A DNA stretch of 64,000 bases from Eledone cirrhosa. Taxonomy: Eukaryota. This document shows positions 1,246 to 62,410 of this stretch, piece after piece. Every line of letters starts with the position of its first letter. The first letter of the stretch is position 1. The stretch is taken from NCBI GenBank assembly GCA_964016885.1, contig OZ024745.1, positions 128,774,001 through 128,838,000 of the forward strand. The letters run 5' to 3'. The notes under the pieces are model-generated. The model saw only the letters and a list, made by a program, of their open reading frames with translations, did no database searches and was not told the origin of the DNA. A program made the position numbers and the translations under genes.

Positions 1246-2394
1246 TGCATAAATATAAATTTGTTTAATTTGCCTGAAGGCATAACTTGTCTCTATCTGT
1301 TTTGTTATGTCTCAATGTGCACTGGATTGATTGGTATCGACCTTAATGTACTGAAACTGTAGTGATTTTCGGATCTTGACTGAGGAGATAGGACTGTCGA
1401 TCTTTCTGTTGATTTTTTTCCGTTGTCTTTGTCCTGTGCACTCCCTATTTTGATTTATGTATATATATATATATGTTTGAAGAAATGGGAGAAAGGGTAC
1501 TCAATACATGTATTGGGGTTTCTTCATTTGCTTGAAGCCGATGATTCCTGCTATTGTTATTCATAGGTTCTTATATACACAACCATGGTTGCCTTGCACC
1601 TTGGATTATCTCCTTACTGACCACCATTGACGGAGAGTTTGCTATCCACAGGTGTAAGCTTTGCGAGATGGAATGGCTCCTCCAACACATCTCCCTCACC
1701 ATCCTCTAGGGGAAAATGCCTTCGCTAATCTGTCTGCCGGGACTGCGGGATGGCCAGCATGTAGGCTCTGATTTGCATATAACAGTGAAAGAGAGGGAAC
1801 GTAAATGCACACATGTACTTGATAAGATAAAAAAGTTGAGAAGAATGAAAATTTTATATTCATTGTTGTCATTAGTTTACTTATTCACATATTTATTTCA
1901 ACATTTTGTTGTTTGAACAACGACAGTTATCAAGAAACGCTGATTAGTGATGCCATGATTCATCAACTGGGCATGGGTATATTCTCAGTCTGTCTTCTTT
2001 TGCAATCTCATACGACTGTTTGCATCAATCCTGCGCCATCCTGTACATCTGTTGCTCAATAAAAACATTTAAAGCTACCCATTACCCACCTACATGTACA
2101 CATCATTCACTGACACACAAGTCAGTGGGTCTCTCTCTCTCACTGTGTATAGACACACACACACAAACATATATATATATACACACTAACCTAAACAAAA
2201 ACGCAAAAAAATGTCTATAACCCTTCCTTTCTTCCTTCTGTTCTTACCCCCTCCTCTAGGCCTCTGGGTCATGTAGCTGGTTTGTATGTCTGTAAGTTGA
2301 TCTCTGTGTGACTTTCAATACATTGCCACCACTATCCAATCGGGGTAACCACAGTTAGTTAGGTACTCAATACATTGGTACAGTGTACACATGC

Positions 2395-2572
2395 ACTGTA
2401 AGGTGGTCACGAGAAAGAGCACCCAGTCCACACTGTAAATGGGGTTAGAGTTGGGGGAGGGAGCATCATCCAGCTGTAGAAACCAAGCCCAAATCAGTTC
2501 TGTGTGAGGAAAACATGGTTGACTCACAATGGGACAGCTCATCTAACCCTGCTACTGTGGAAAATGGACGTT
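2395..2572 (+). mobile_element. RTE LINE 3' UTR fragment
   Basis: gcacccagtccacactgtaaat...catccagctgtagaaacc...ggaaaatggacgtt matches the 3' UTR of the RTE copies at 21313-22133. Confidence 0.7.
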
Positions 2573-2892
2573 CATCATCATCATTTTACGTCTGCTTTTC
2601 CCTGCTTGCAAGGGTGGGACGAGAACTGGTTCTGGCTTGATTTCTACAGGTGGGTGCCCTTCCTAACACCAACCTCATTTACAGTGAGTGTTGGGTGCTT
2701 TTTTGCCATGGCACCTCCACGACCACCTTGTAGTGGAATGATAGGGACCCCAGTCCCTATCATCTCATTTCTACAGCTGAGTAAACTGGAGCAATGTGAA
2801 ATAAAGTGTCTTGCTCAAGGAAACAACACATCACCTGAACTCACAACCTTTCGATTGCAGGGCCAATGCTCTAACCACTAAGCCATGTGCCC
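2573..2892 (-). mobile_element. tRNA-derived CORE-type SINE with RTE tail (family A)
   Basis: Minus strand: A box TGGCTTAGTGG, partial B box, MIR-CORE-like ccttgagcaagacactttatttcacattgctccagtttactcagctgtagaaatgag, RTE 3' end and (GAT)n tail. Confidence 0.88.
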
Positions 2893-2896
2893 CTAC

Positions 2897-2935
<39 letters not shown>

Positions 2936-3422
2936 GTGTATCAAGGATCATTTGGGAATTATATACCGGGCAGATGAATGAATGAATAAATAATTTGTTG
3001 CAATGTTAAGTATTGAGGTAGTTTTTTTTTTTTTCTGGTGGTTTCAAGTTCTAAGTTGTGGGCTGCACTGGTGGTAGTAGTGGTTGAAAGAGATGCCAAT
3101 ATGGCAGTGAGGTATTTGAATAAAGTGGGTGATTCAGAGAACCAGGAAGGGTACTTGTTTATTTGTTTCTAAACTGATTTTACTTTTAGTCTTGTGTGTG
3201 AAAATGTGTGTAAGATACTGTATTCTATCCTGGGTGTTTTTCTTTGCCCCCCCCCCCCCCCCCTTCTCTCTCTCTCTCTGTCTCTCTCTCTCTCTCTCTC
3301 ATTTTCTAACCCATTAACTCAAATTTGCAGTTAAATAAAACATGTGTGCACTAAAAGAAAATATTGCTGGGAAATTTATTTTATGTTTTGAGAGATTTCA
3401 AGTTTGAATTCATATATATATA

Positions 3423-3489
<67 letters not shown>

Positions 3490-3795
3490 CGCATAAAACT
3501 TAAACAAACAGGACCACCAGCACACACACACACACACATACCTCCATGCCTATAGCCCTGTATAATGTAAAGAAAAGGAAGAAATATATTTTAGAATCTT
3601 GGTAACTCACTTTATTATTTTAATAATAATGATAACAATAATAAGTAATTTCTTAATTTGGCATGAATAATAATAATAATAATAATAATGATAATAATAA
3701 TGAAAATAAAATTATTATTGTTATCATTATTAATATTATTCTTATGTTTATTTCTTTTGATGATGCTGAAGGCAAATTGTTTTTGGTGGAAGACA

Positions 3796-3843
<48 letters not shown>

Positions 3844-3934
3844 CTGTATACAGGCTTAATTGATTTGACCCTAGTACATAGTAGTACTGTTTGTTTTGTT
3901 TTTGTTGTTCCACCAGAAGACTGTAATGGCAATC

Positions 3935-4518
3935 ATAATGTTTTCTGATTTCGGCACAAGGTTAACAGTTTTGAAGGAGGGGCAAAGTTGATTAAATCCA
4001 CCCCAGTGCATTACTGGTACTTTATTTTATTGAACTCGCAAGGATGAAAAGCAAAGCTAACCTCGGCGGGATTTGAACTCACAACATAGAGGGCCGTATC
4101 TCTATGCTGCAAACAAAGCATGGCGTCCGATCCTCTACTGATACTGCCAATCCACCACCTTAATAATTGCTTCTACTTTTACCACAAGGCCAGCAATTAC
4201 CCCAGTGCATTACTGGTACTGACCTTCGTAAGGATGAAAGCCAAAGCAACTTTAGCAGGATTTGAACTCGGCAACAAAGCACGTCGCCCAATGCCATACA
4301 GATACTGCTAATTCACACCCTTCTATAATAATTGTTTCTACTTTTGGCACAAGGCCAGCAATTACCCCAGTACATTACTGGTACTTTATTTTATCGACTC
4401 CGTAAGGATGAAAGGCAAAGTTAACCTCAGCGGGATTCGAACTCAGAATGGCCAGCACCGTAACTCGATGCGTCAAAGCATAGCGTGTCCGACCCTCTAC
4501 CGATACTGCCAATCCACC
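3935..4518 (-). mobile_element. Three tandem tRNA-derived SINE copies (family B)
   Basis: Copies at about 3935-4160, 4161-4316 and 4326-4518. Head ggtggattggcagtatcggtagag, B box gagttcaaatcc, central tttgcctttcatccttacggggtcgataaaataaagtaccag, (ATT) tail. Confidence 0.85.
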
Positions 4519-4631
4519 AATGATTTCTTATATTGGTCACAAAGACACTACAGGACACTGTTACCAACCCAGCCAAAACTGGCTCTGGTTCTATGAAATA
4601 TAACCACCCATTTTAAAGGATTCTGATTTAA

Positions 4632-4838
4632 CCCTTTAGTTACAAACCCAGCCAAAACCACCCTTTTTAAAAGGGTTCCTATTTAAATTAAAATCTTTCC
4701 AACATAATTTTATATAAGAACCTTACATTAAGTTACTATCTTAGTAATGAAGTAATTAATAATTTTAGGAAATCCCTCAAAATTCTCTGTTAATTAATTG
4801 AATTAGTGTAGTTCATTAGAAATCTGGTCATGAAAGGG
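4632..4838. mobile_element. piggyBac-like MITE (family P2)
   Basis: TTAA|CCCTTT...AAAGGG|TTAA; related copies at about 11208-11480, 13317-13541 and 41430-41640. Confidence 0.7.
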
Positions 4839-5367
4839 TTAACTATGTGTTTGTATGTGTTGTGGAACTTAAACAATTCCATTCTATGTCCCTTTTGTCA
4901 TTGCTTGTAGATGGGATGATTTGGTTGGGTACAGTAGCATGTCCAGGTCAGTCCCTTCTTTTCTCATTTACATAACTGAAACATTTTCTATTTTTTTTTT
5001 CTTATCCCTTTTTCTACTGTTTCACATCCATTTTTGTTTGTTCGTTTGTTTGTTTGTGTTTTTTCTTTGGTGCTTGCATGGGCGGGATGATATGTCTGGT
5101 GAAACATTTATTTTTCCAGCTGGATACCATTCCAACTGTTAATCATTCAACCCTGAATTTAGGGGAGTAGCTCCTTTCATATCAGTCAAGCAAACTGGGA
5201 CATGTAGAGTTGTCTGCCTTGTTTAGGGGACACACTATGATTGGTTGTAATGTGGTGTGGCGCAAGTTGTAACCACCAGAAAGGGCAACCTTTACTGGTC
5301 ATTGTGTTTCCACACACACACACACATACATACATACACACACACACACACATACATACACACACAC

Positions 5368-5426
<59 letters not shown>

Positions 5427-5793
5427 CATACATACACACATACATACATACACACACATACACACACATACATACATACATACACACATACATACACACA
5501 TGCTGTTGACATATCAAAACACTTACACACTTACACACACACTATTAAAATAAACACACTATTGACATATACAAATATACACATACACACACTGACATAT
5601 ACAAACAGTTTAGTACGTTGAATGTTGTCTTTGAAAATGTAGATTATATTTAATATGTTATGTTTGACTTCCACTGCTGTGTTCAGGTCTTTGGATACAC
5701 TGGTGCCATATTGGGATTCTTGGCCATACCAAACATCTGTTCCTCTCACTCTGCCTCTACCTGATACTACCCCTTCCCCACCTGATACTACAT

Positions 5794-6072
5794 GGAGGCA
5801 CGTGGCCCAGTGGTAAGGGTGTTGGACTTAGGATCATGATGTTGTGGGTTTGATTCTTAGACTGGGTTGTGTGTTGTGTTCTTGAGCAAAACACTTCATT
5901 TCACGTTGTTCCAGTATACTCGGCTGAAAATGAGTACCAGTAATGGCTGGGGGTTTTAACACTGCGATGGACTGGTGTCATGTTCAGTGTGTGTATGTGG
6001 GGGTGTCTTGTATTCTCAGTTGCTTCGTGTCACAAAACCAAGATAACTGCTGGCCTAAGGCAGACTTTTACT
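5794..6072 (+). mobile_element. CORE-type SINE with alternative tail (family C)
   Basis: ggaggcacgtggcccagtggtaagg head, B-box-like ggtttgattc, CORE-like segment, tail ctgcgatggactgg...cagacttt. Confidence 0.8.
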
Positions 6073-6083
6073 TAATATATATA

Positions 6084-6130
6084 TTTTCTGATGATTTCCT
6101 TTGAATGAAACAGTTCTAGTCCTGTTGAAG
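6084..6130 (+). ncRNA. Weak hammerhead ribozyme-like motif
   Basis: CTGATGA 6088-6094, t-TTC-cttt-GAA-t stem II, GAAA 6107-6110, ACAG/CTGT stem III, GUU; stem I weak. Confidence 0.35.
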
Positions 6131-6610
6131 CCAGTTCTTATGGTTGGGTTTTGCCTACCGCAATTTTCAATTTGTCAAGCTTTTAAAAGTAATGTTATTA
6201 CTCTAAGGACCTACCTTTATTGAGTGGTTTGCTACTCATTCCTTATTGTAGGTCGGCTTTGCTTGGCCACAGCGAAAGCTTCGATTTTACTCAGCTTCCA
6301 GTTGTATATATACAACTGAGAATACAAGACACCCCCACATACACACACACTGAACATGACACCAGTCCATCACAGTGTTATATATATATATATATATATT
6401 ACATAACCCTGTGATATACTGGTGGCCTGTCCAGTGTCTTGTACTCGGTCACTTCACACCACAGAAACCTGTGATAAGCACCAGCCTGATTATCTTTCGG
6501 GCTCATGACAGATTTTAACTAATTTTACATAAAGGACCGTAACTCTGTCACAAGACATGTCCGACACTCTACCAATTACTGTTCATCCACCGCCCCTTGG
6601 TATCAGCACA

Positions 6611-6897
6611 ATAATAATTGTTTCTACTTTAGGCACAAGGCCAGCAATTTGAAGGGAAGGAGAAAGTCAATCAAACCCAGTGTATTACTGGTACTTTATT
6701 TTATCTCACCATAATAATTGTTTCTACTTTTGGCACAAGGCCAGCAATTACTCCAGTGTATTACTGGTACTTTATTTTATCGACCCTGTAAGGATAAAAG
6801 GCAAAGTGAACCTCGGCGGGATTTGAACTCACACCATAAAGGGGCGTAACTCTGCTGTAAAGCATGGCGTCTGACTCTCTACCGATACTGCCAATCC
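6611..6897 (-). mobile_element. SINE family B (partial plus near-full copy)
   Basis: Same motifs as the copies at 3935-4518. Confidence 0.85.
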
Positions 6898-7010
6898 TTC
6901 TAACAATAATAATAATAATAATACACACTTAAAAAAAAAAATGCTTAATCACCACAATTCCTTTCCATTTTCCTATCTGGTTAAAAATAAAATATTTAAG
7001 GCTCTATTTA

Positions 7011-7058
<48 letters not shown>

Positions 7059-7324
7059 TGCAATCTCTTTCTTCTTCACATTTTGAAAACAGAGAGAGAG
7101 GGAGAGAGACTATATGGTGTTTGTAAAGGAAATTCTTTCTCCTTTTCCAAGTCCACTGGGTACATGAGGGTGTATTTTTGGATGGGTTTTTGTTGTTGTT
7201 TCTTAGCCTAGATTGTGGACTGCAAATGTAATAAGACATTTTTAGACACATCTGAAAATAAAATCTAAATTTTCCTTCTTTTCATAATTCATATTAATTA
7301 CTGTTGTTTCAGCCGCCATCAGTA

Positions 7325-7812
7325 CACCACCACCACCACTACCACCATTATCAGCACACCACTACCACCTTCACCACCACCACCACCACTACCACCATTA
7401 TCAGCACACCACTACCACCTTCACCACCACCACCACCACCACCACCACCATTAACAGCACACCACTACCACCTTCACCACCATCACTTCCACTACCATCA
7501 TTACTATCACTACCACCTTCACCATCACTACCACCATCACCACTCCCACCATCACCACCACCACCATCACCACTCCCACCTTCACCACCATCACTACTAC
7601 CACCACCATCACCACTCCCACCTTCACTACTACCACTACCATTACTGCCACCATCACCACTACCACCTTCACTACTACCACCATCACCACTACCACCATC
7701 ACTACCACCACCACCATTACTGCTACCATCACCACTACCACCATCACTACCACCACCACCATTACTGCTACCATCACCACTACCACTATCATCACCATCA
7801 CTACTGTCACCA
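7325..7812. repeat. (CAC/CAT/TAC)n trinucleotide low-complexity tract
   Basis: Source of the His/Thr-rich ORF artefact. Confidence 0.9.
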
Positions 7813-7919
7813 TCCTACAATAACAACATACCACCCCTCACTACCAACATCTCAATACAACCATCTGTATAATGATGATGATGATCATCATCAGTAACAA
7901 CAGAAGTAGCAGCAGCAGC

Positions 7920-8340
7920 ATTCCTGGGCTGGGTTGTGTGTTGTATTCTTGTGCAAAACACTTTACTTCTCGTTGCTCCAGTATACTAGAGTACCACAAT
8001 AGCTGGGGGTTAACCCTGTGATGGACTGGAGTCCTATCCAGGAAGGAGTCTTGTACTCTCAGTCGCTTCATGTTTCAAAACTGGGATAAGTACCAGTCTG
8101 ACGAGCCTCCTGGTTTGAGACAGACTTTAACCTTGCGATGACTGGCATCCTATCCAGGAGAGAGTCTTGTACTCTCAGTCGCTTCGTGTTTCAAAACTGG
8201 GATCAGCACCAGTCTGACGAGCCTCCTTGCTTGAGACAGACTTTAACCTTGCGATGACTGGCATCCTATCCAGGATGGGGGGCTCGTACTCTCAGTCGCG
8301 TCACACCAGAAAACCGGGGTAAGTACTGGCCTGACGAGCT
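7920..8340 (+). mobile_element. 5'-truncated family C SINE with triplicated ~117 bp tail
   Basis: CORE-like segment, then tail units starting at about 8011, 8128 and 8244. Confidence 0.8.
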
Positions 8341-8698
8341 GACTGAGGATTATTATTGGAGATTTACTTTCACTATTGCCAGAAAAACCCTTCACAGTCA
8401 AAGTTTGACTGTTTTGATCAGAATTGACTTGAGACTAAACTTCACAACTATTACCACTACATTCTTCTGCCACACCAGCTTTATTAATTAACTAATTAAT
8501 TATTTCACTAATTAATTCCAGCCACTATGTTTAGCTGATGATGCAGAAGGAGTGTTGTTGTTCAATTTGTGTGGATATTGAATTTACTTCCAGAATTTGG
8601 AATATGGATGTATCTAAGGTGATTGTATGAGGATATGGGTTATGTCTGGACATTTATATATAGTTTGTGTGTGGACAGGCATTTATATATATATATAT

Positions 8699-8985
8699 CA
8701 TCATCATCATCATCATCATTTTACGTCCACTTTTTCCCTGCTTGCAAGGGTGGGACGGACATTGATTCTGGCTTGATTTCTACAGCTGGATGCCCTTCCT
8801 AACACCAACCTCATTTACAGTGAGTGCTGGGTGCTTTTTTTGCTGTGGCACCTCCACGACCACTTTGCAGTGGAATGATAGGGACCCCAGTCCCTATCAT
8901 CTCATTTCTACAACTGAGTAAACTGGAGCAATGTGAAATAAAGTGCCTTGCTCAAGGAAACAACACATCACATGGTCTGAGAATT
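8699..8985 (-). mobile_element. Family A SINE, 5'-truncated
   Basis: Near-identical to 36642-36982; (CAT)n tail lies in a TA tract. Confidence 0.88.
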
Positions 8986-9019
8986 ATATATATATTATAT
9001 ATATATATAATTATATAAT

Positions 9020-9067
<48 letters not shown>

Positions 9068-9112
9068 CTAAATATTAATAAATGAAGACATTCACATAAT
9101 CAAAATATATGA

Positions 9113-9172
9113 TTTATTATATATATTTCGGAGGTACTGTGCTGTTTTTTCAGTACGTCCTCATCAGATAAA
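9113..9172 (-). ncRNA. Type I hammerhead ribozyme
   Basis: Minus strand: tttat-CTGATGA-ggacgtactg...cagtacctcc-GAAA-tatatata^ataaa. Confidence 0.8.
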
Positions 9173-9282
9173 ATGCATGAATTGATGTATGACATACCTC
9201 AACTGTCTTGATGATTCAATTCCAGTAATGGCAGAATTGAACCATCAAGACAGTTGAGGTATGTCATACATCAATTCATGTA

Positions 9283-9344
9283 TTTTATCTGATGAGGACG
9301 TATTTAAAAAACAGCACAGTACCTTCAAAATATATATAATAAAA
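9283..9344 (+). ncRNA. Degenerate type I hammerhead (GAAA->AAAA)
   Basis: ttttat-CTGATGA...c-AAAA-tatatata-ataaaa; mirror copy of 9113-9172. Confidence 0.65.
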
Positions 9345-9487
9345 CATATATTTTGATTATGTGAACATCTTCATTTATTAATATTTCAAATAATATTAAT
9401 AACTCCAGAAAACTTCATTGTAGAGTGCTTTTAATCTATTGTAAAACTATATTCATTGAGTAATCAATGAACCTTATTAACCTTTGG

Positions 9488-9554
<67 letters not shown>

Positions 9555-9811
9555 TTGTGTGTGTGTGGATGGGCGTCTATATATATATATAAAGTGTGTA
9601 TACGTACATACATATATGTATACAGACGTACACTAGTATGTATATATATATATATATATACATACATACATGCACACACATATATATATGTACGTATGGA
9701 TTTACCGAATATTTATTATAATGCTCGGTTTGTTTGTAAACAAACATCCCGAATTACGCCGTACAGTGTTTAGCAACCATCGTTGCCCTTTTGTTCAACA
9801 CTGACAAAGGA

Positions 9812-9854
9812 ACGATGTACTAGTTTCAAGCTCATTAGCTATCGTCAGCATCGT
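9812..9854 (-). ncRNA. Minimal type I hammerhead ribozyme
   Basis: Minus strand: acgatg-CTGACGA-t-agct-aatg-agct-t-GAAA-ctagta^catcgt; 6 bp stem I and palindromic ACUAGU stem III. Confidence 0.8.
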
Positions 9855-9972
9855 ATACCTTCCTGCCAGATGATTGAACGTCTGAAAGTATATACTTTCC
9901 TTATGTATATTAACGGCTGAGTAGCCTAATTTGCATATCGAGTGAGTTAATCGGCCGGGCGCACCGAAAACG

Positions 9973-19632: not shown

Positions 19633-19796
19633 GGTGTCCTTTAAAATGTATATATATGTATATTTTTATTTATTGATATATATAGATATATATAAATATA
19701 TTTTTATATATGTATATATATATACATATATACATATGTCCCAAGGCTCTGATACCATCAACACCATAAACACAGAGCTGGCATATCTAAGAACTA

Positions 19797-19852
19797 ACTG
19801 CCTGATGAGGTCATAGCCATTCAATGGCTATCATCAAAATATATATAGCAGT
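19797..19852 (+). ncRNA. Degenerate type I hammerhead ribozyme
   Basis: actgc-CTGATGA-..atagccat-tca-atggctat..-AAAA (GAAA expected)-tatatata^gcagt, then AATAAA. Confidence 0.7.
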
Positions 19853-19910
19853 AAATAAAGGATTATGAGTTCATGCAATTGACTTATGTTTCGTCACTAT
19901 ATATATATAC

Positions 19911-20302
19911 CGAAGACCCGCCTTGCCTAAGTACAAAGCGAAACCTACAGTCAGTAGGCACCTCCTAACCAAAAATACACCCCCATCCCACTACCCCTAC
20001 CCCCATTAACACCATCCCTTTCTCTGTAAAGTTATGTTGGTACCACAACATCCAGTCCTAAATAAATGAGGTCGTGTAGGTGTCACAACAAAAAAAAAAC
20101 ACAGTCCACGCTGTAATGTGGCCGTGGTAAAAACCTCGCAGTCCACACTGTAAATGTGGTTGGTGTTAGGAAGGGCATCCAGCCGTAGAAAACCTGCCAG
20201 GCAGTCCTATATGAGCAAGACAACTAATCTTGCCTCACGTGGGACAATTCCTGTCTAAACCCATGCTAACGTGGAAGATAGACGTTAAAAGATGATGATG
20301 AT
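19911..20302 (+). mobile_element. RTE LINE 3' end (truncated copy)
   Basis: gaagacccgccttgcctaa plus a 3' UTR near-identical to 21294-21688; (GAT)n tail. Confidence 0.88.
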
Positions 20303-20307
20303 ATATA

Positions 20308-21312
20308 TTTATTATTGCCCTTCAGGCTATAACAGAGGAGTTCAAGACCGGCTGCCCATGGGAACTCCTATACGCAGATGATCTAACGCTCATAGCTGAA
20401 TCAATGGCTGAACTAGAGAAGAAATTCCAAACATGGAAGCATGGCTTAGAATCAAAAGGCCTTAAAATTAACCTGTCTAAGACTAAAGTTCTAGTTTGTA
20501 GGAAGGAAAATAGGGCACCGGTCCCATCCGGGAAATGGCCATGCTGAGTGTGTAGGAAAGGAGTAGGCAGAAACTCCATTTTATGTCCCAAATGCAAAGT
20601 ATGGGTGCATAAAAGATGTAGTGGGATCACAGGTAAGCTAACTAAGAATATAGATTTTATATGTGGCTGGTGCGCTGGTACAATAAGTAGCAACAAATGC
20701 CCACAGAATACTAGCTCATTCCATAGCACAGATCGTTCTATAGAAATAGTGGACACCTTCCGTTACCTGGGTGACAAAATCAGCAGTGGTGGAGGGTGCT
20801 CTGAAAGTACAGTAGCTAGAGTCAGAACTGGATTGAAAAAGTTCAGAGAGCTTATACCACTATTAGCCACTAAAGGGTTTTCTCTAAAAATGAAAGGCAG
20901 GCTGTATGATGCCTTCATACGAACAGCAATGTTACATGACAGTGAGACCTGGGCATTGTGTGCAGAGGATATACGCAGACTGGAGAGGAACGAAGCTTGC
21001 ATGCTCCGTTGGATGTGTAATAGTAATATACGTGACCGGCAAAGCATAAATGAACTAAGGGAGAAATTAGGAATAAGAGGGATCAGGTGCTGTTTACTCG
21101 AGAGAAGACTACGTTGGTATGGTCATGTGATGCGCATGAAAGACGACAGCTGTATAAAAAAGTGCAGGGCAATAAAAATAGACGGTAGCCACGGAGTAGG
21201 CAGACCCAGAAAAACCTGGGACGACTTGATAAATTCCGACCTCTCCAAGACAATGTCACTAGACCGAGATCTTTGGCGCTACGCAGTAATACAGAAGACC
21301 CGCCTTGCCTAA
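20308..21312 (+). pseudogene. RTE-clade reverse transcriptase C-terminal ORF remnant
   Basis: In frame FIIALQAITEEFKTGCPWELLYADDL...GLKINLSKTK, stop at 20545-20547, then ...FRYLG...SETW...RRLRWYGHVMR...GRPRKTW...DRDLWR, which are RTE hallmarks. Confidence 0.93.
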
Positions 21313-33203: not shown

Positions 33204-33518
33204 GTTTTCGCTCCAACATAGCTATATATACGTGTCACTATGTGTATTTTGTGTGAGCATGTATGTGTGTTTGTAAATATATATATATGTGTGTGCGCGT
33301 GTGTATATATATATTTGTATGTGTGTTTGTATATATATATATACACATATACGTGTTTGTGTGTGTGTATATTTAACTTATGGTTTAAGAATGGCCATAA
33401 GGCAAATCTACACTCTACTTTCCTTAAGTATGAATTACTAAATTGTATAATAGCCTTACCATTCTTAAATTGTAACAATTTATATATATATGTATATATA
33501 TATATTTCGTAGAATCAA

Positions 33519-33610
33519 GACATATCTGAAGACTGCGATTTTCAGAGTCAGGTTCGATCATCGCATCGACCGTGCCTCGAGCTGGTCGACAGAAACGATT
33601 GTAATATGTC
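33519..33610 (+). ncRNA. Type I hammerhead with extended stem II
   Basis: gacatat-CTGAAGA-59 nt-GAAA-cgattgta^atatgtc (7 bp stem I), then AATAAA at 33612. Confidence 0.78.
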
Positions 33611-33744
33611 CAATAAATTCCATTCGTCGCAACACTGATTCTTTTTTGCTGTGATATATATATATATACACACATCATCATCATTTCATTTTACGTCCAC
33701 TTTTTCCCTGCTTGCAAGGGTGGGACATATATATATATATATAT

Positions 33745-33787
<43 letters not shown>

Positions 33788-33943
33788 CATTGACAAATAT
33801 ATCAATATGCCCAGACATTCAGATATATTGCCCTTGGTATGACAGTGTGGTTTTAGCTCAATGTAGGATAACTAGTATACTACAGAGCTGTTATAGTTAT
33901 AGGAATAACCAAAGAGTGCTTACTATTGATATACTCTTGTTTA

Positions 33944-33993
33944 TAGGCTCTGATGATTCCTGCCATGGTGTATGGATGAAACACTGTTAGCTA
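33944..33993 (+). ncRNA. Type I hammerhead-like motif
   Basis: taggct-CTGATGA-t-tcc..gga-t-GAAA-cactgtt^agcta-ATAAA. Confidence 0.6.
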
Positions 33994-34050
33994 ATAAAAC
34001 AATGTATTTCTAAGCATTCTTTGGTTATTCCTATAACTATATATATATAT

Positions 34051-41871: not shown

Positions 41872-42098
41872 GAAGGTGCATGGCTTAGTGGTGATAGCAT
41901 TGGGCTTGCAATCGAAAGGTTGTGAGTTCAATTCTCAGACCGGGTGATGTGTTGTTTCCTTGAGCAAGACACTTTATTTCACATTGTTCCAGTTTACTCA
42001 GCTGTAGAAATGAGTTGTGGCATCACCTGTGCCAAGCTGTATCGGCCATTGCCTTTCCCTTGGCCATCATCGGTGGCGTGGAGAGGGGAGGCTGGTAC
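41872..42098 (+). mobile_element. CORE-type SINE (family A head, different tail)
   Basis: Head and CORE near-identical to family A; diverges after aaatgag. Confidence 0.82.
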
Positions 42099-44256: not shown

Positions 44257-44550
44257 TGTGTGTGTGTATAAAAGTATAATTAACGAAGATCGCAGGTATT
44301 AATTCAACGACCTCCAGTCGCCGTCTAGCCCATTCAATGAATCCGCCGAATTGCAGTAATGCAGTTGCAATCAGCTGTTCAAAGTGCACACATTTGGTTA
44401 ATAGCAGGTACCATGGCTGTGTTTTGGTAGCGAGAAAGGTTTCATTCTCAACAAATATTTATATATATAAATTGATGAGCAGAACAAACAAACATTAAAC
44501 AATCCTTTAAATGAATTAAAAAATGATTTAAATATCTACCTGTTCATAAT

Positions 44551-44629
44551 GCTATTACCGGCGGTTTCCATTTACAAAAGATTAGAAATTCAGAGAATTT
44601 CCAACGGAAAGTAAATTTCATCAGATAGC
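44551..44629 (-). ncRNA. Type I hammerhead with extended stem II
   Basis: Minus strand: gctat-CTGATGA-a-atttac...gtaaat-g-GAAA-ccgccggta^atagc. Confidence 0.75.
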
Positions 44630-45294
44630 TATTTCCATTCTATAGGACTTAAGTCCCACGGATATATATATATATAATTGTTGTGAAATATATATAAGCG
44701 TGTGTGTGTGTGTGTGTAAAAAAAAATCTCGGAAAAAGGGCTTTAGTGGAGGGTTTCAGAAATGTTTGGCCTCGAATGTAGATTGCCCATGGCGGGGACA
44801 GGCTTTTTATATGCAGTTTGGACACACATCAACATCCACCATTCAATCATTCTCACCGTATTTATTTATATTTCCCTTGTTTCTCTGAAGCATTCTCCAT
44901 TCTATAAGAATAGAATAATATATCGCAAATGACTGACGGCTAAGTAAGTGACTATCTAGCTACGTAGCTATCAGCTAAATATAAGTATGGCGGAAACAAA
45001 CAGTTTCTCAGTGGCTGGCGAAAAAGGGGTAGGGTTTCCTGCAAAATGTTCAGATGAGCTGAGTTGGTTTTCACCTTGACCCTACTTCCTCTCATCTCTC
45101 TCTCCCCACCCCCACTCTTCTCTCTCTCCAACTATAAACTGGCTCAATACGACCCTTCCCTATCCTACACCGCATCCGAGTTTTGCTATTTTTGTTTCCG
45201 TGTCGTTGTCTCTCTGACAATACACTTGTGTTCGTATATCTACACGTGTGTGTTGTTGTATATGAATGTATGTATGTATATGTACGTTTTTATA

Positions 45295-45994: not shown

Positions 45995-46038
<44 letters not shown>

Positions 46039-46192
46039 CAGGAGTGTAACTTGGAGTTAATGTAGGTTCACCCGGGTGAACACTCTATGTTTAGGTTCAC
46101 TTCAGTGTCGAGGTGTAGAGCTAGACAGAGTGTATTATAGTGAAATAAGATAACAAGGATGATTGGTTACTCCTTCATTACATTTATTGGTT

Positions 46193-46279
46193 GGTGATGC
46201 GCGCGTTTCGCCACTGATCAGCTCAAAGTTCGATCTGTATCGATCTGACCTGACTCTGTAACCCGCGGCTCGTCAGACC
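46193..46279 (-). ncRNA. Type I hammerhead with extended stem II
   Basis: Minus strand: ggt-CTGACGA-gccgc...gtggc-GAAA-cgcgcgcatc^acc, then AATAAA. Confidence 0.75.
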
Positions 46280-46438
46280 CCCTTGTAATGTTAATATATA
46301 CATATATATATATATATATATAAGGCGGCCACCCGGACTGACAACTGCTAATTTTTGGGCCGCCTTCTCGTCTTGGGCATCTCTCTGCTTTTCAGCCCCT
46401 TGGATTCTGTCTATTATATTCCTTTGTTAAATTTCGGA

Positions 46439-46496
46439 ATACCTGATGATGTCACCGGATTCATACTGAACCCGGTCATTGAAATGTTCATAGTAT
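46439..46496 (+). ncRNA. Type I hammerhead ribozyme
   Basis: atac-CTGATGA-tg..accgg..ccggt-catt-GAAA-tgttcata^gtat-AATAAA. Confidence 0.72.
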
Positions 46497-46539
46497 AATA
46501 AACCTTTAAGGAATTACACCAGTCCAACCTCCTGTTATT

Positions 46540-46616
<77 letters not shown>

Positions 46617-46618
46617 TA

Positions 46619-46754
46619 CAACAGTGACATATAAAGTACTTAAGTTTCGCGGAGTTATCACCCCAAGTCATTCAGCCTGTCATAGATATAACAGACTGAA
46701 TGAGTTGGGGTTAATAACCTAACGAAACTTAAATATCTGTACATATCACTGTTG
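46619..46754. ncRNA. Imperfect palindrome with two divergent variant hammerheads (CUGAAUGA core)
   Basis: Plus strand: acaga-CTGAATGA-gttgggg..cctaac-GAAA-cttaaata^tctgt. Minus strand: acagg-CTGAATGA...GAAA-cttaagta. Confidence 0.62.
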
Positions 46755-46909
46755 ATACTAATTATATATAACACACCCTTTAGGAAGAGTGCTCTAACTA
46801 ACCTTTGGATATTTATACCAACTTGTACTACAGTGTATGTGTGTGTGTGTATATATATATATTTCAATGATATTAATAAATGGAAACTATCTTTATAAAA
46901 CCATATTTA

Positions 46910-46966
46910 TTCTATTATATATATTTCAAGGGTACCAAAACTTTGGTATGCTCTCATCAGATAAAA
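46910..46966 (-). ncRNA. Type I hammerhead ribozyme
   Basis: Minus strand: ttttat-CTGATGA-gag..taccaaa/tttggta..ctt-GAAA-tatatata^atagaa, overlapping AATAAA. Confidence 0.8.
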
Positions 46967-47316
46967 TATAAGATTTGTTTTATAAATAGTGACATATCCA
47001 GGAATCAGACCTTAACAGTTCAAGTTCTATATATGGCTTCTACGGGACTAGAACTGATGATGTTTACACTCTACTAATGTATTGAGTACCTCACTAACTG
47101 TGGTTAGCCCCCCCCCCCTGCCCCCGTTGAATCCGACACACACATACACATATATATAAAATATCAGAATGGAAGAAACAGTTAGACCATTGCTTAACAG
47201 AGTACTCGATACTTGGAGTAGTAGAGTGGGTAATATGAAAAATTCGGGACCCTGCCGTTTCAACAGCTAGATCTGAACACACACACACACACACACACAC
47301 ATGTGTGTGTGTGTGT

Positions 47317-55345: not shown

Positions 55346-55465
55346 TATGTATGCATATGTGTTTGTCTCTGTAATTTCCCGTAATATAAGTACCGGACTT
55401 GATATCAATCTCTCTCTGTATGTATATATGTATGTATATATATATATATATATACACACGCACAC

Positions 55466-55615
55466 AATAAACAACACAATATAATTATTCCATTACCAAA
55501 GGTTTCAGGAAACTAGACGACCTTAACATCTGATGAGCGTACTGGACGTTTCTGTTAGGATCGTCTAGTTTCCTGAAACCTTTGGTAATGGAATAATTAT
55601 ATTGTGTTGTTTATT
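55466..55615. repeat. Fold-back palindrome (~63 bp arms) containing a hammerhead
   Basis: 55466-55528 versus 55553-55615, near-perfect. Confidence 0.92.
55527..55590 (+). ncRNA. Type I hammerhead-like motif
   Basis: cat-CTGATGA-38 nt-GAAA-cctttggta^atg. Confidence 0.62.
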
Positions 55616-56039
55616 ATGTAATTAAATTTTCATACACTTAATTAACATGTATGAGCGACCTTAGGTTTCGCAGTTATGGCCACCGCTGTATAGTGACGCC
55701 AGAGCAAAATTACGAAAAACATTTTCACGTATTCTGCACACGCACGCGCGCGCACACACACATTAAGGTCTATGTCATCAAAGCGGTGCCCCCAGCATGC
55801 CCACTTTCTAATCACTGAAATCAAAATACTAAATAAAGGAAAAAGAAGGCAAACTGGCTGTGTGAGGTGGAGAAGGGTAGTGGACTGTCGACTGTGTCAT
55901 TATGAGTTTAACCAAGACATTTTGATTATGTCCAGTTTAGGACAACCTACTTGAAATCGACTGGCAATTAATATAGAAATGTAAAATAGACCCAAGGACG
56001 TGTGTGTTCTCTAGTAGACACATATGTTGCTCATATAAA

Positions 56040-57914: not shown

Positions 57915-62410
<4,496 letters not shown>

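Follow-up and report, generated by a model that had tools for sequence, protein, structure and literature searches.

The window analysed here is a 64,000-nt stretch of the Eledone cirrhosa genome (G000:C5:128774001-128838000), a 3.0 Gb genome in which (TA)n and (TG)n repeats abound. When the window sequence was read and parsed, it showed five hammerhead motifs of type I, which belong to the four families M1, M2, M3 and M5. They are contained in 774 bp and all fall within the intervals marked in a first-pass annotation. The modules that carry them are divided, as that annotation had described, by TA or TG/TA runs (AT x14.5, TA x38.5, TG x18.5 and one short TG/TA run). Remnants of two more families, F8 and F6, which the first description did not include, extend the stack to 47280, giving six families in 1.2 kb. 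Its features are listed below in window coordinates (PLE, Penelope-like element).

45995-46040: (TG)n/TA run, with TG x18.5 at 45995-46031, at the 3′ (tail) end of M1
46041-46292, minus strand: M1, a 5′-truncated PLE end in the long (tailed) form; hammerhead 46279-46193, AATAAA 46188-46183
46294-46322: (AT)14.5 run, separating the 5′ ends of M1 and M2
46323-46545, plus strand: M2, a PLE-type end in the short form without a tail; hammerhead 46439-46496, AATAAA 46497-46502
46541-46615: (TA)38.5 run
46613-46838: M3, a head-to-head inverted pair; short arm 46680-46613 (minus strand), tailed arm 46690-46838 (plus strand)
about 46839-46863: TG/TA run, separating the 3′ ends of M3 and M5
46864-47027, minus strand: M5, a 5′-truncated PLE end in the short form; hammerhead 46966-46910, AATAAA 46911-46906
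47033-47111: F8 (fifth family) remnant, a collapsed inverted pair, compared with the complete pair in L099
about 47150-47280, minus strand: F6 (sixth family) degenerate end with the same pair, tail and TA anatomy

The conserved boxes of the five motifs, read from the sequence, are these.

M1, minus strand: core CTGACGA 46276-46270, GAAA 46209-46206
M2, plus strand: core CTGATGA 46443-46449, GAAA 46481-46484
M3(+), plus strand: core CTGAATGA 46696-46703, GAAA 46724-46727
M3(-), minus strand: core CTGAATGA 46675-46668, GAAA 46648-46645
M5, minus strand: core CTGATGA 46960-46954, GAAA 46927-46924

A possible sixth hammerhead, suggested by a CTGATGA near 47056, was rejected as a deletion-junction product in the collapsed F8 pair. 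In this remnant the 3′ end of the short arm is fused to the tail, and both hammerheads are deleted.

All five motifs share a CUGAN(N)GA box, a stem II, GAAA, a short near-palindromic stem III and a type I stem I closure. M2 and M5 have the CUGANGA and GAAA boxes, stems I and II and the NUH site of a type I hammerhead, and so does M3(-), which carries an extra core base. The predicted cuts are after 46492 on the plus strand for M2 and after 46916 on the minus strand for M5. None of the five motifs was recognised by Rfam, either at the gathering score or at E values up to 10, and the Rfam output at the locus consists of microsatellite or hairpin matches to miRNA models. One of our own descriptors passed one of the five motifs and a relaxed one passed three (M2, M3(-) and M5). 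M1 and M3(+) fail the descriptors because the 15.2-16.2 pair is broken in the window copies. This position is a C-A mismatch here and is paired in the family majority. In M1 the family GUC triplet reads AUC, with the C15.2-A16.2 mismatch, and stem III has a private 2-nt insertion that is not in the family copies; in M3(+) a G-to-A change gives AUA and the same mismatch. Both M3 arms have the 8-nt core CUGAAUGA, with one extra base, which is exact in 25 of 31 other family copies. With a score of at least 15, the relaxed type I descriptor found 44 matches in 900 kb of sampled genome against 0–1 per block shuffle (five shuffles). As the same motif is also present in many genomic copies of each module, we conclude that the hammerhead motifs are not due to chance.

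First-look candidates numbered 9814 for the whole block, 1743 for M3, 1796 for M2 and 3839 for M5, and the best 40 of each search, the copies most like those of the window, were scored. Only the window itself matches the whole block (1-976) and no other fetched locus has the modules side by side, so that the block is not a unit repeated elsewhere. M1, M2, M3 and M5 each represent a dispersed repeat family of their own.

In each of the four families the 3′ end lies at one of two fixed positions, giving a short form and a form with a tail of 70–150 nt. TATA is found at the end of 212 of the 223 copies terminating at the short or the long end; other end points account for 20 of 243 matches, and 7 pairs involve such an end. 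All 49 classifiable head-to-head pairs, with all four families represented, consist of one long and one short arm, and solo short and solo long ends are both frequent. A direct pLTR repeat around a body was found for M5 (L273) and M2 (L279); none turned up for M1 or M3 among the fetched loci. The window copy of M1 has the long end, those of M2 and M5 have the short end, and M3 forms a complete pair. Judged by their sequences, the four modules carry the PLE tail and inverted-pLTR anatomy. The strict pairing of one long and one short arm in four families lends natural support to the in vitro observation that a PLE has two internal start sites.

The parent elements could be followed to different depths. 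At L273, M5 occurs as two pLTRs that enclose an RT, an endonuclease and a UTR of 1.2 kb, and an inverted copy is present as well; the M5 family is the pLTR of a full-length RT and GIY-YIG element. M1 is the pLTR end of a GIY-YIG-encoding element. An endonuclease-like ORF lies ∼950 nt upstream of the M1 end on the same strand in L011. This upstream UTR was found at 14 other loci, all of which carry the M1 end, and 8 of the 14 have a same-strand tblastn match to a PLE endonuclease. The Atlas neighbours of the M1-linked ORF include a GIY-YIG cluster (40% of members). Pfam gave no match for the M1- and M5-linked ORFs, and PDB likewise nothing useful. The RT and GIY-YIG assignment of these ORFs was made by tblastn among them, from Atlas features and, in part, from motifs that we take to be those of the two domains.

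For M2, two direct copies lie 2.1 kb apart in L279, forming a unit in partial tandem. No long ORF was found on either strand of this unit of ∼2.1 kb, and the M2 parent appears to be a non-coding unit that is likely non-autonomous. The ORFs present in L096 and L279 were rejected as M2 parents, as they are part of elements from other families that lie next to M2 in these stacks. One is an uninterrupted 832-aa RT and GIY-YIG ORF of a further PLE family (L279:4544-7039, minus strand), tail-to-tail with the M2 end across a TA run. The other is a full-length frameshifted PLE with a CxxC-type linker and an H4-family end (L096:2597-6665, plus strand), which follows an M2 pair and a TA run. M3 copies have at most about 150 nt in common upstream of the ribozyme, and a coding parent was not reached among the fetched family copies.

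We interpret the block as the stacked 3′ ends of six PLE-like repeat families, four of them with hammerheads, which very probably arose by serial insertion into one (TA)n tract and persist as likely inert passengers. Serial insertion of different ribozyme elements had already been proposed in the first-pass annotation, and this part of the proposal holds, as the modules are not repeated as a unit and differ in age. Differences from the family column majority amount to 30/220 in M3, 11/253 in M1, 4/223 in M2 and 6/164 in M5. Being the most divergent from its family majority, M3 is the oldest module and was likely inserted first. CpG sites show the fastest decay in all families, and no A-to-I editing signature was seen among the copies, sense-strand A>G not being in excess over T>C. 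No empty site was seen among contigs and RAD reads, which break at the repeats here, and no record spans the locus.

Copies of M5 chosen by the sequence 3′ of the cut site all (30/30) keep ribozyme sequence upstream of it, which suggests that uncleaved RNA is the likely template. None of these 30 M5 copies has its 5′ end at the ribozyme cut site. For M3, 2 of 29 copies start within 3 nt of it as judged by eye, both behind a TA run and thus ambiguous. From published PLE biochemistry we infer that the RT-endonuclease of the element would nick AT-rich DNA and that reverse transcription would begin at one of two internal sites in the uncleaved RNA. An early stop would then leave ends of 150–300 bp with the whole ribozyme. 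TA would be left on both sides of every insertion, so that the tract would remain a target. The stacked motifs would have no same-family, same-strand partner here for dimer cleavage and would be decaying. Non-CpG divergence among copies is 0.010–0.030 in the core boxes vs 0.033–0.096 in the flanks. We read this lower divergence of the core boxes as constraint on the source elements; selection on inserted copies may also contribute.

In order to assess how unusual the stacking is we annotated 90 stretches of 10 kb, taken at round-number positions on 23 large contigs (L103-L115, L119-L135, L151-L210), with a library of 128 natural copies under 32 labels, which is incomplete. Label H41, which is SINE-contaminated and served as control, and locus L127, a tandem array, were left out, leaving 0.89 Mb. 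F6 and F7 were counted by anatomy, without a full hammerhead being shown. F6 forms very frequent short inverted pairs (e.g., L002, L005 and L115:5814-6218) with a hammerhead-like 3′ half only and a 5-bp stem III, and a complete hammerhead core was absent from its 82 motif occurrences.

The sample of 0.89 Mb contained 169 elements. TATATA was found near 178 of 241 3′ ends, compared with 26 of 266 SINE ends and 918 of 9167 random points. Different-family neighbours within 150 bp occurred 30 times, vs 8.1 expected under uniform placement (maximum 17 in 2000 runs). Two nulls that place elements by TA runs gave 25.5 and 35.1 such adjacencies, with probabilities of 0.14 and 0.91 of reaching 30. For 40 of the 80 other copies of these four families that were examined, an end of another family lies at most 300 bp away. 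As stacking occurs genome-wide and matches a plain TA-run null, the locus is not a special hotspot, contrary to what had been proposed. TA targeting alone explains the stacking, with the locus as an upper-tail case, the TA-run null being partly circular if insertions lengthen the runs. Tail-to-tail orientation was seen in 23 of the 30 neighbour pairs, an excess that we set aside because the library covers 3′ parts only. A 4.5-kb TA-rich microsatellite at 57916-62403 of the window has no library match inside, which shows that a long TA tract can remain unfilled.

The window nevertheless exceeds all 89 sampled 10-kb stretches, with five cores of four families in 800 bp vs a maximum of three, and a six-family chain vs a maximum of four. 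Family chains in the sample were of size 1 in 94 cases, 2 in 28, 3 in 3 and 4 in 2, and a geometric extrapolation by hand gives ∼300 chains of at least six families genome-wide. We consider the following reading unlikely, though conceivable. The locus would be one of a few hundred dense piles in a genome with on the order of 100,000 motifs, a density at which same-family copies would often share one pre-mRNA. Such copies could dimerise or be switched on by PLE protein, and host transcripts on either strand could then be cut or polyadenylated too early, with the M3 core as an active variant.

More than TA targeting could be involved if PLE proteins home to the ends of older PLEs, or if the RNAs of two families are copied in one event. 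M1 (minus strand, long) and M2 (plus strand, short) stand head-to-head and mimic the rule of one long and one short arm, and in both L279 and L096 the end of M2, or of an M2 pair, is abutted by a full-length PLE of another family. Insertion of PLEs in or beside existing copies has also been described (PMC6765202). However, the 30 observed adjacencies lie within the TA-run nulls. A mixed pair is argued against by the 29-bp AT run between M1 and M2, as same-family pairs mostly join without one, and by the frequency of solo short and solo long ends. We therefore regard both variants as quite unlikely.

The first-pass annotation further suggested that the serially inserted stack now acts as a two-way barrier, cutting or terminating RNA on either strand. 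Motifs do lie on both strands, the core boxes and stems I–III are intact in M2 (plus), M5 (minus) and M3 (minus), and the motif density is above that of every sampled stretch. The AATAAA signals that it had noted are present downstream of M1, M2 and M5; neither M3 arm has one. However, AATAAA is a trait of the families rather than of the locus. It occurs at most about 25 nt past the predicted cut in 13 of 28 families (background 2%) and often overlaps the 3′ strand of stem I.

Cleavage is also doubtful on structural grounds. The motifs are of the dimer type with a short palindromic stem III, for which poor cleavage even as dimers is described in one report (PMC4209133), and cleavage only with PLE protein, with no read ends at the cut site, in another (PMC11167929). 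Each family has one copy per strand, so that the block holds no same-family, same-strand partner, and cross-family pairing by stems III and I fails in 8 of 8 same-strand combinations. In M1 and M3(+) the cleavage stem is damaged. The arms of M3 pair with each other, and the M3 pair folds as one long hairpin on either strand (-56.9 and -80.5 kcal/mol; z -9.7 and -13.8). A scan of 150 of 287 candidate ORFs over 84 kb around the block gave no host-gene domain and only a LINE reverse-transcriptase fragment (RVT_1, window 20302-21309, plus strand), a search in which short exons would be missed and which leaves an intronic position possible. The barrier is thus unsupported and in our view very unlikely. 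A further reading, in which the whole block moves as one piece, either as one composite element or as a tandem unit of the retrozyme type, is almost certainly wrong, since apart from the closeness of the motifs nothing favours it, no second locus matches across the module borders, the module order is not repeated in any fetched locus, module ages differ and no head-to-tail repeat of one unit occurs in the block.

The reading as inert, serially inserted PLE ends agrees well with known systems. The PLE pLTR hammerheads of Cervera and De la Pena (2014, PMC4209133) are like those found here in being type I with a short palindromic stem III, mostly solo from truncated PLEs with some close opposite-strand pairs, and of many families per genome. 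Unlike these, our locus has an extra-base M3 core and four families within 0.8 kb, and the genome ∼1.5e5 motifs, counted with a different descriptor. According to two papers (PMC4209133, PMC6765202), metazoan PLE hammerheads of this palindromic type probably depend on a partner from the same family and cleave weakly even with one. For an anole PLE in vitro, one study describes uncleaved RNA as template, a ribozyme that cut only with protein, and RNA-seq without read ends (PMC11167929).

Reports on C-terminal EN+ PLEs (Arkhipova 2013, PMC3846280; Frangieh 2024, PMC11167929; Craig 2021, PMC8557442) describe, as here, a pLTR-ORF-pLTR structure with an inverted 5′-truncated copy, a tail on one arm, AT-rich or (TA)n targets, a GIY-YIG endonuclease after the RT and an uncleaved RNA template. 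The tails of ∼70–150 nt found here differ from the 30–40 in these elements, and the 3′ UTRs here are 1–1.4 kb. Non-LTR retrozymes (Cervera and De la Pena 2020, PMC7229834; bioRxiv 10.64898/2026.07.22.740005) are non-coding, type I and PLE-related, like the unit of M2. In contrast to these retrozymes, there is no head-to-tail 300-bp array, the four families are of mixed orientation and the M2 unit is ∼2.1 kb; a head-to-tail tandem with a hammerhead in each copy, as expected of a retrozyme, was not found in the block.

The one extra base after A6 in both M3 arms corresponds to the A6a core insertion (Perreault 2011, PMC3088659). In that study A6a is a low-activity natural variant, whereas here an entire dispersed family has it as its usual core. 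The M3 family makes it possible to ask whether an element can be successful with a core insertion that is reported to be weak. An M3-type core may already be listed in work on PLE hammerhead dimers by Lunse et al.

The descriptor density of ∼49 per Mb corresponds to ∼1.5e5 motifs genome-wide (bootstrap 0.9–2.1e5), as extrapolated from 900 kb, and intact box pairs in library matches extrapolate to 2.7e5. The sampled hammerhead-type motifs belong to at least 25 families. Published counts are ∼2,000–9,000 per genome, with ∼9,000 in Xenopus (PMC4209133), and 5,000 in mussel (PMC7229834). Compared with these counts, which were obtained with other descriptors, the number of hammerhead-type motifs in the present genome seems to be higher by one to two orders of magnitude. 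An octopus repeat annotation gives active PLE families, and the word ribozyme is absent from the portion covered (PMC13282606). Our search of openly available main texts found nothing on multi-family stacks or on cephalopod hammerhead counts. For PLEs, the hammerheads and tails, the inverted pairs and the targeting of TA have all been published before. The locus is real, is explained by known PLE biology and is denser than usual. By itself it is of little weight, being a dense case of a genome-wide TA-targeting behaviour of PLEs.

Several other elements were observed during the annotation. Other-family PLE-type hammerhead ends lie in the window at 9063-9488, 19766-19897, 33505-33654, 33910-34037, 44470-44664 and 55462-55752, and a smaller cluster with three labels at 9063-9868. 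The tandem array of L127 (L127:259-9797; G000:C28:110.00-110.01 Mb) consists of ∼420-bp units over the whole 10 kb, most with a type I hammerhead, and is non-LTR retrozyme-like; a solo copy of this unit lies at 9749-9868 of the window on the minus strand. At 41881-41938 (plus strand) the window has a tRNA-like head that was not called by ARAGORN and, together with many repeat pieces of 50–110 bp, likely represents SINEs.
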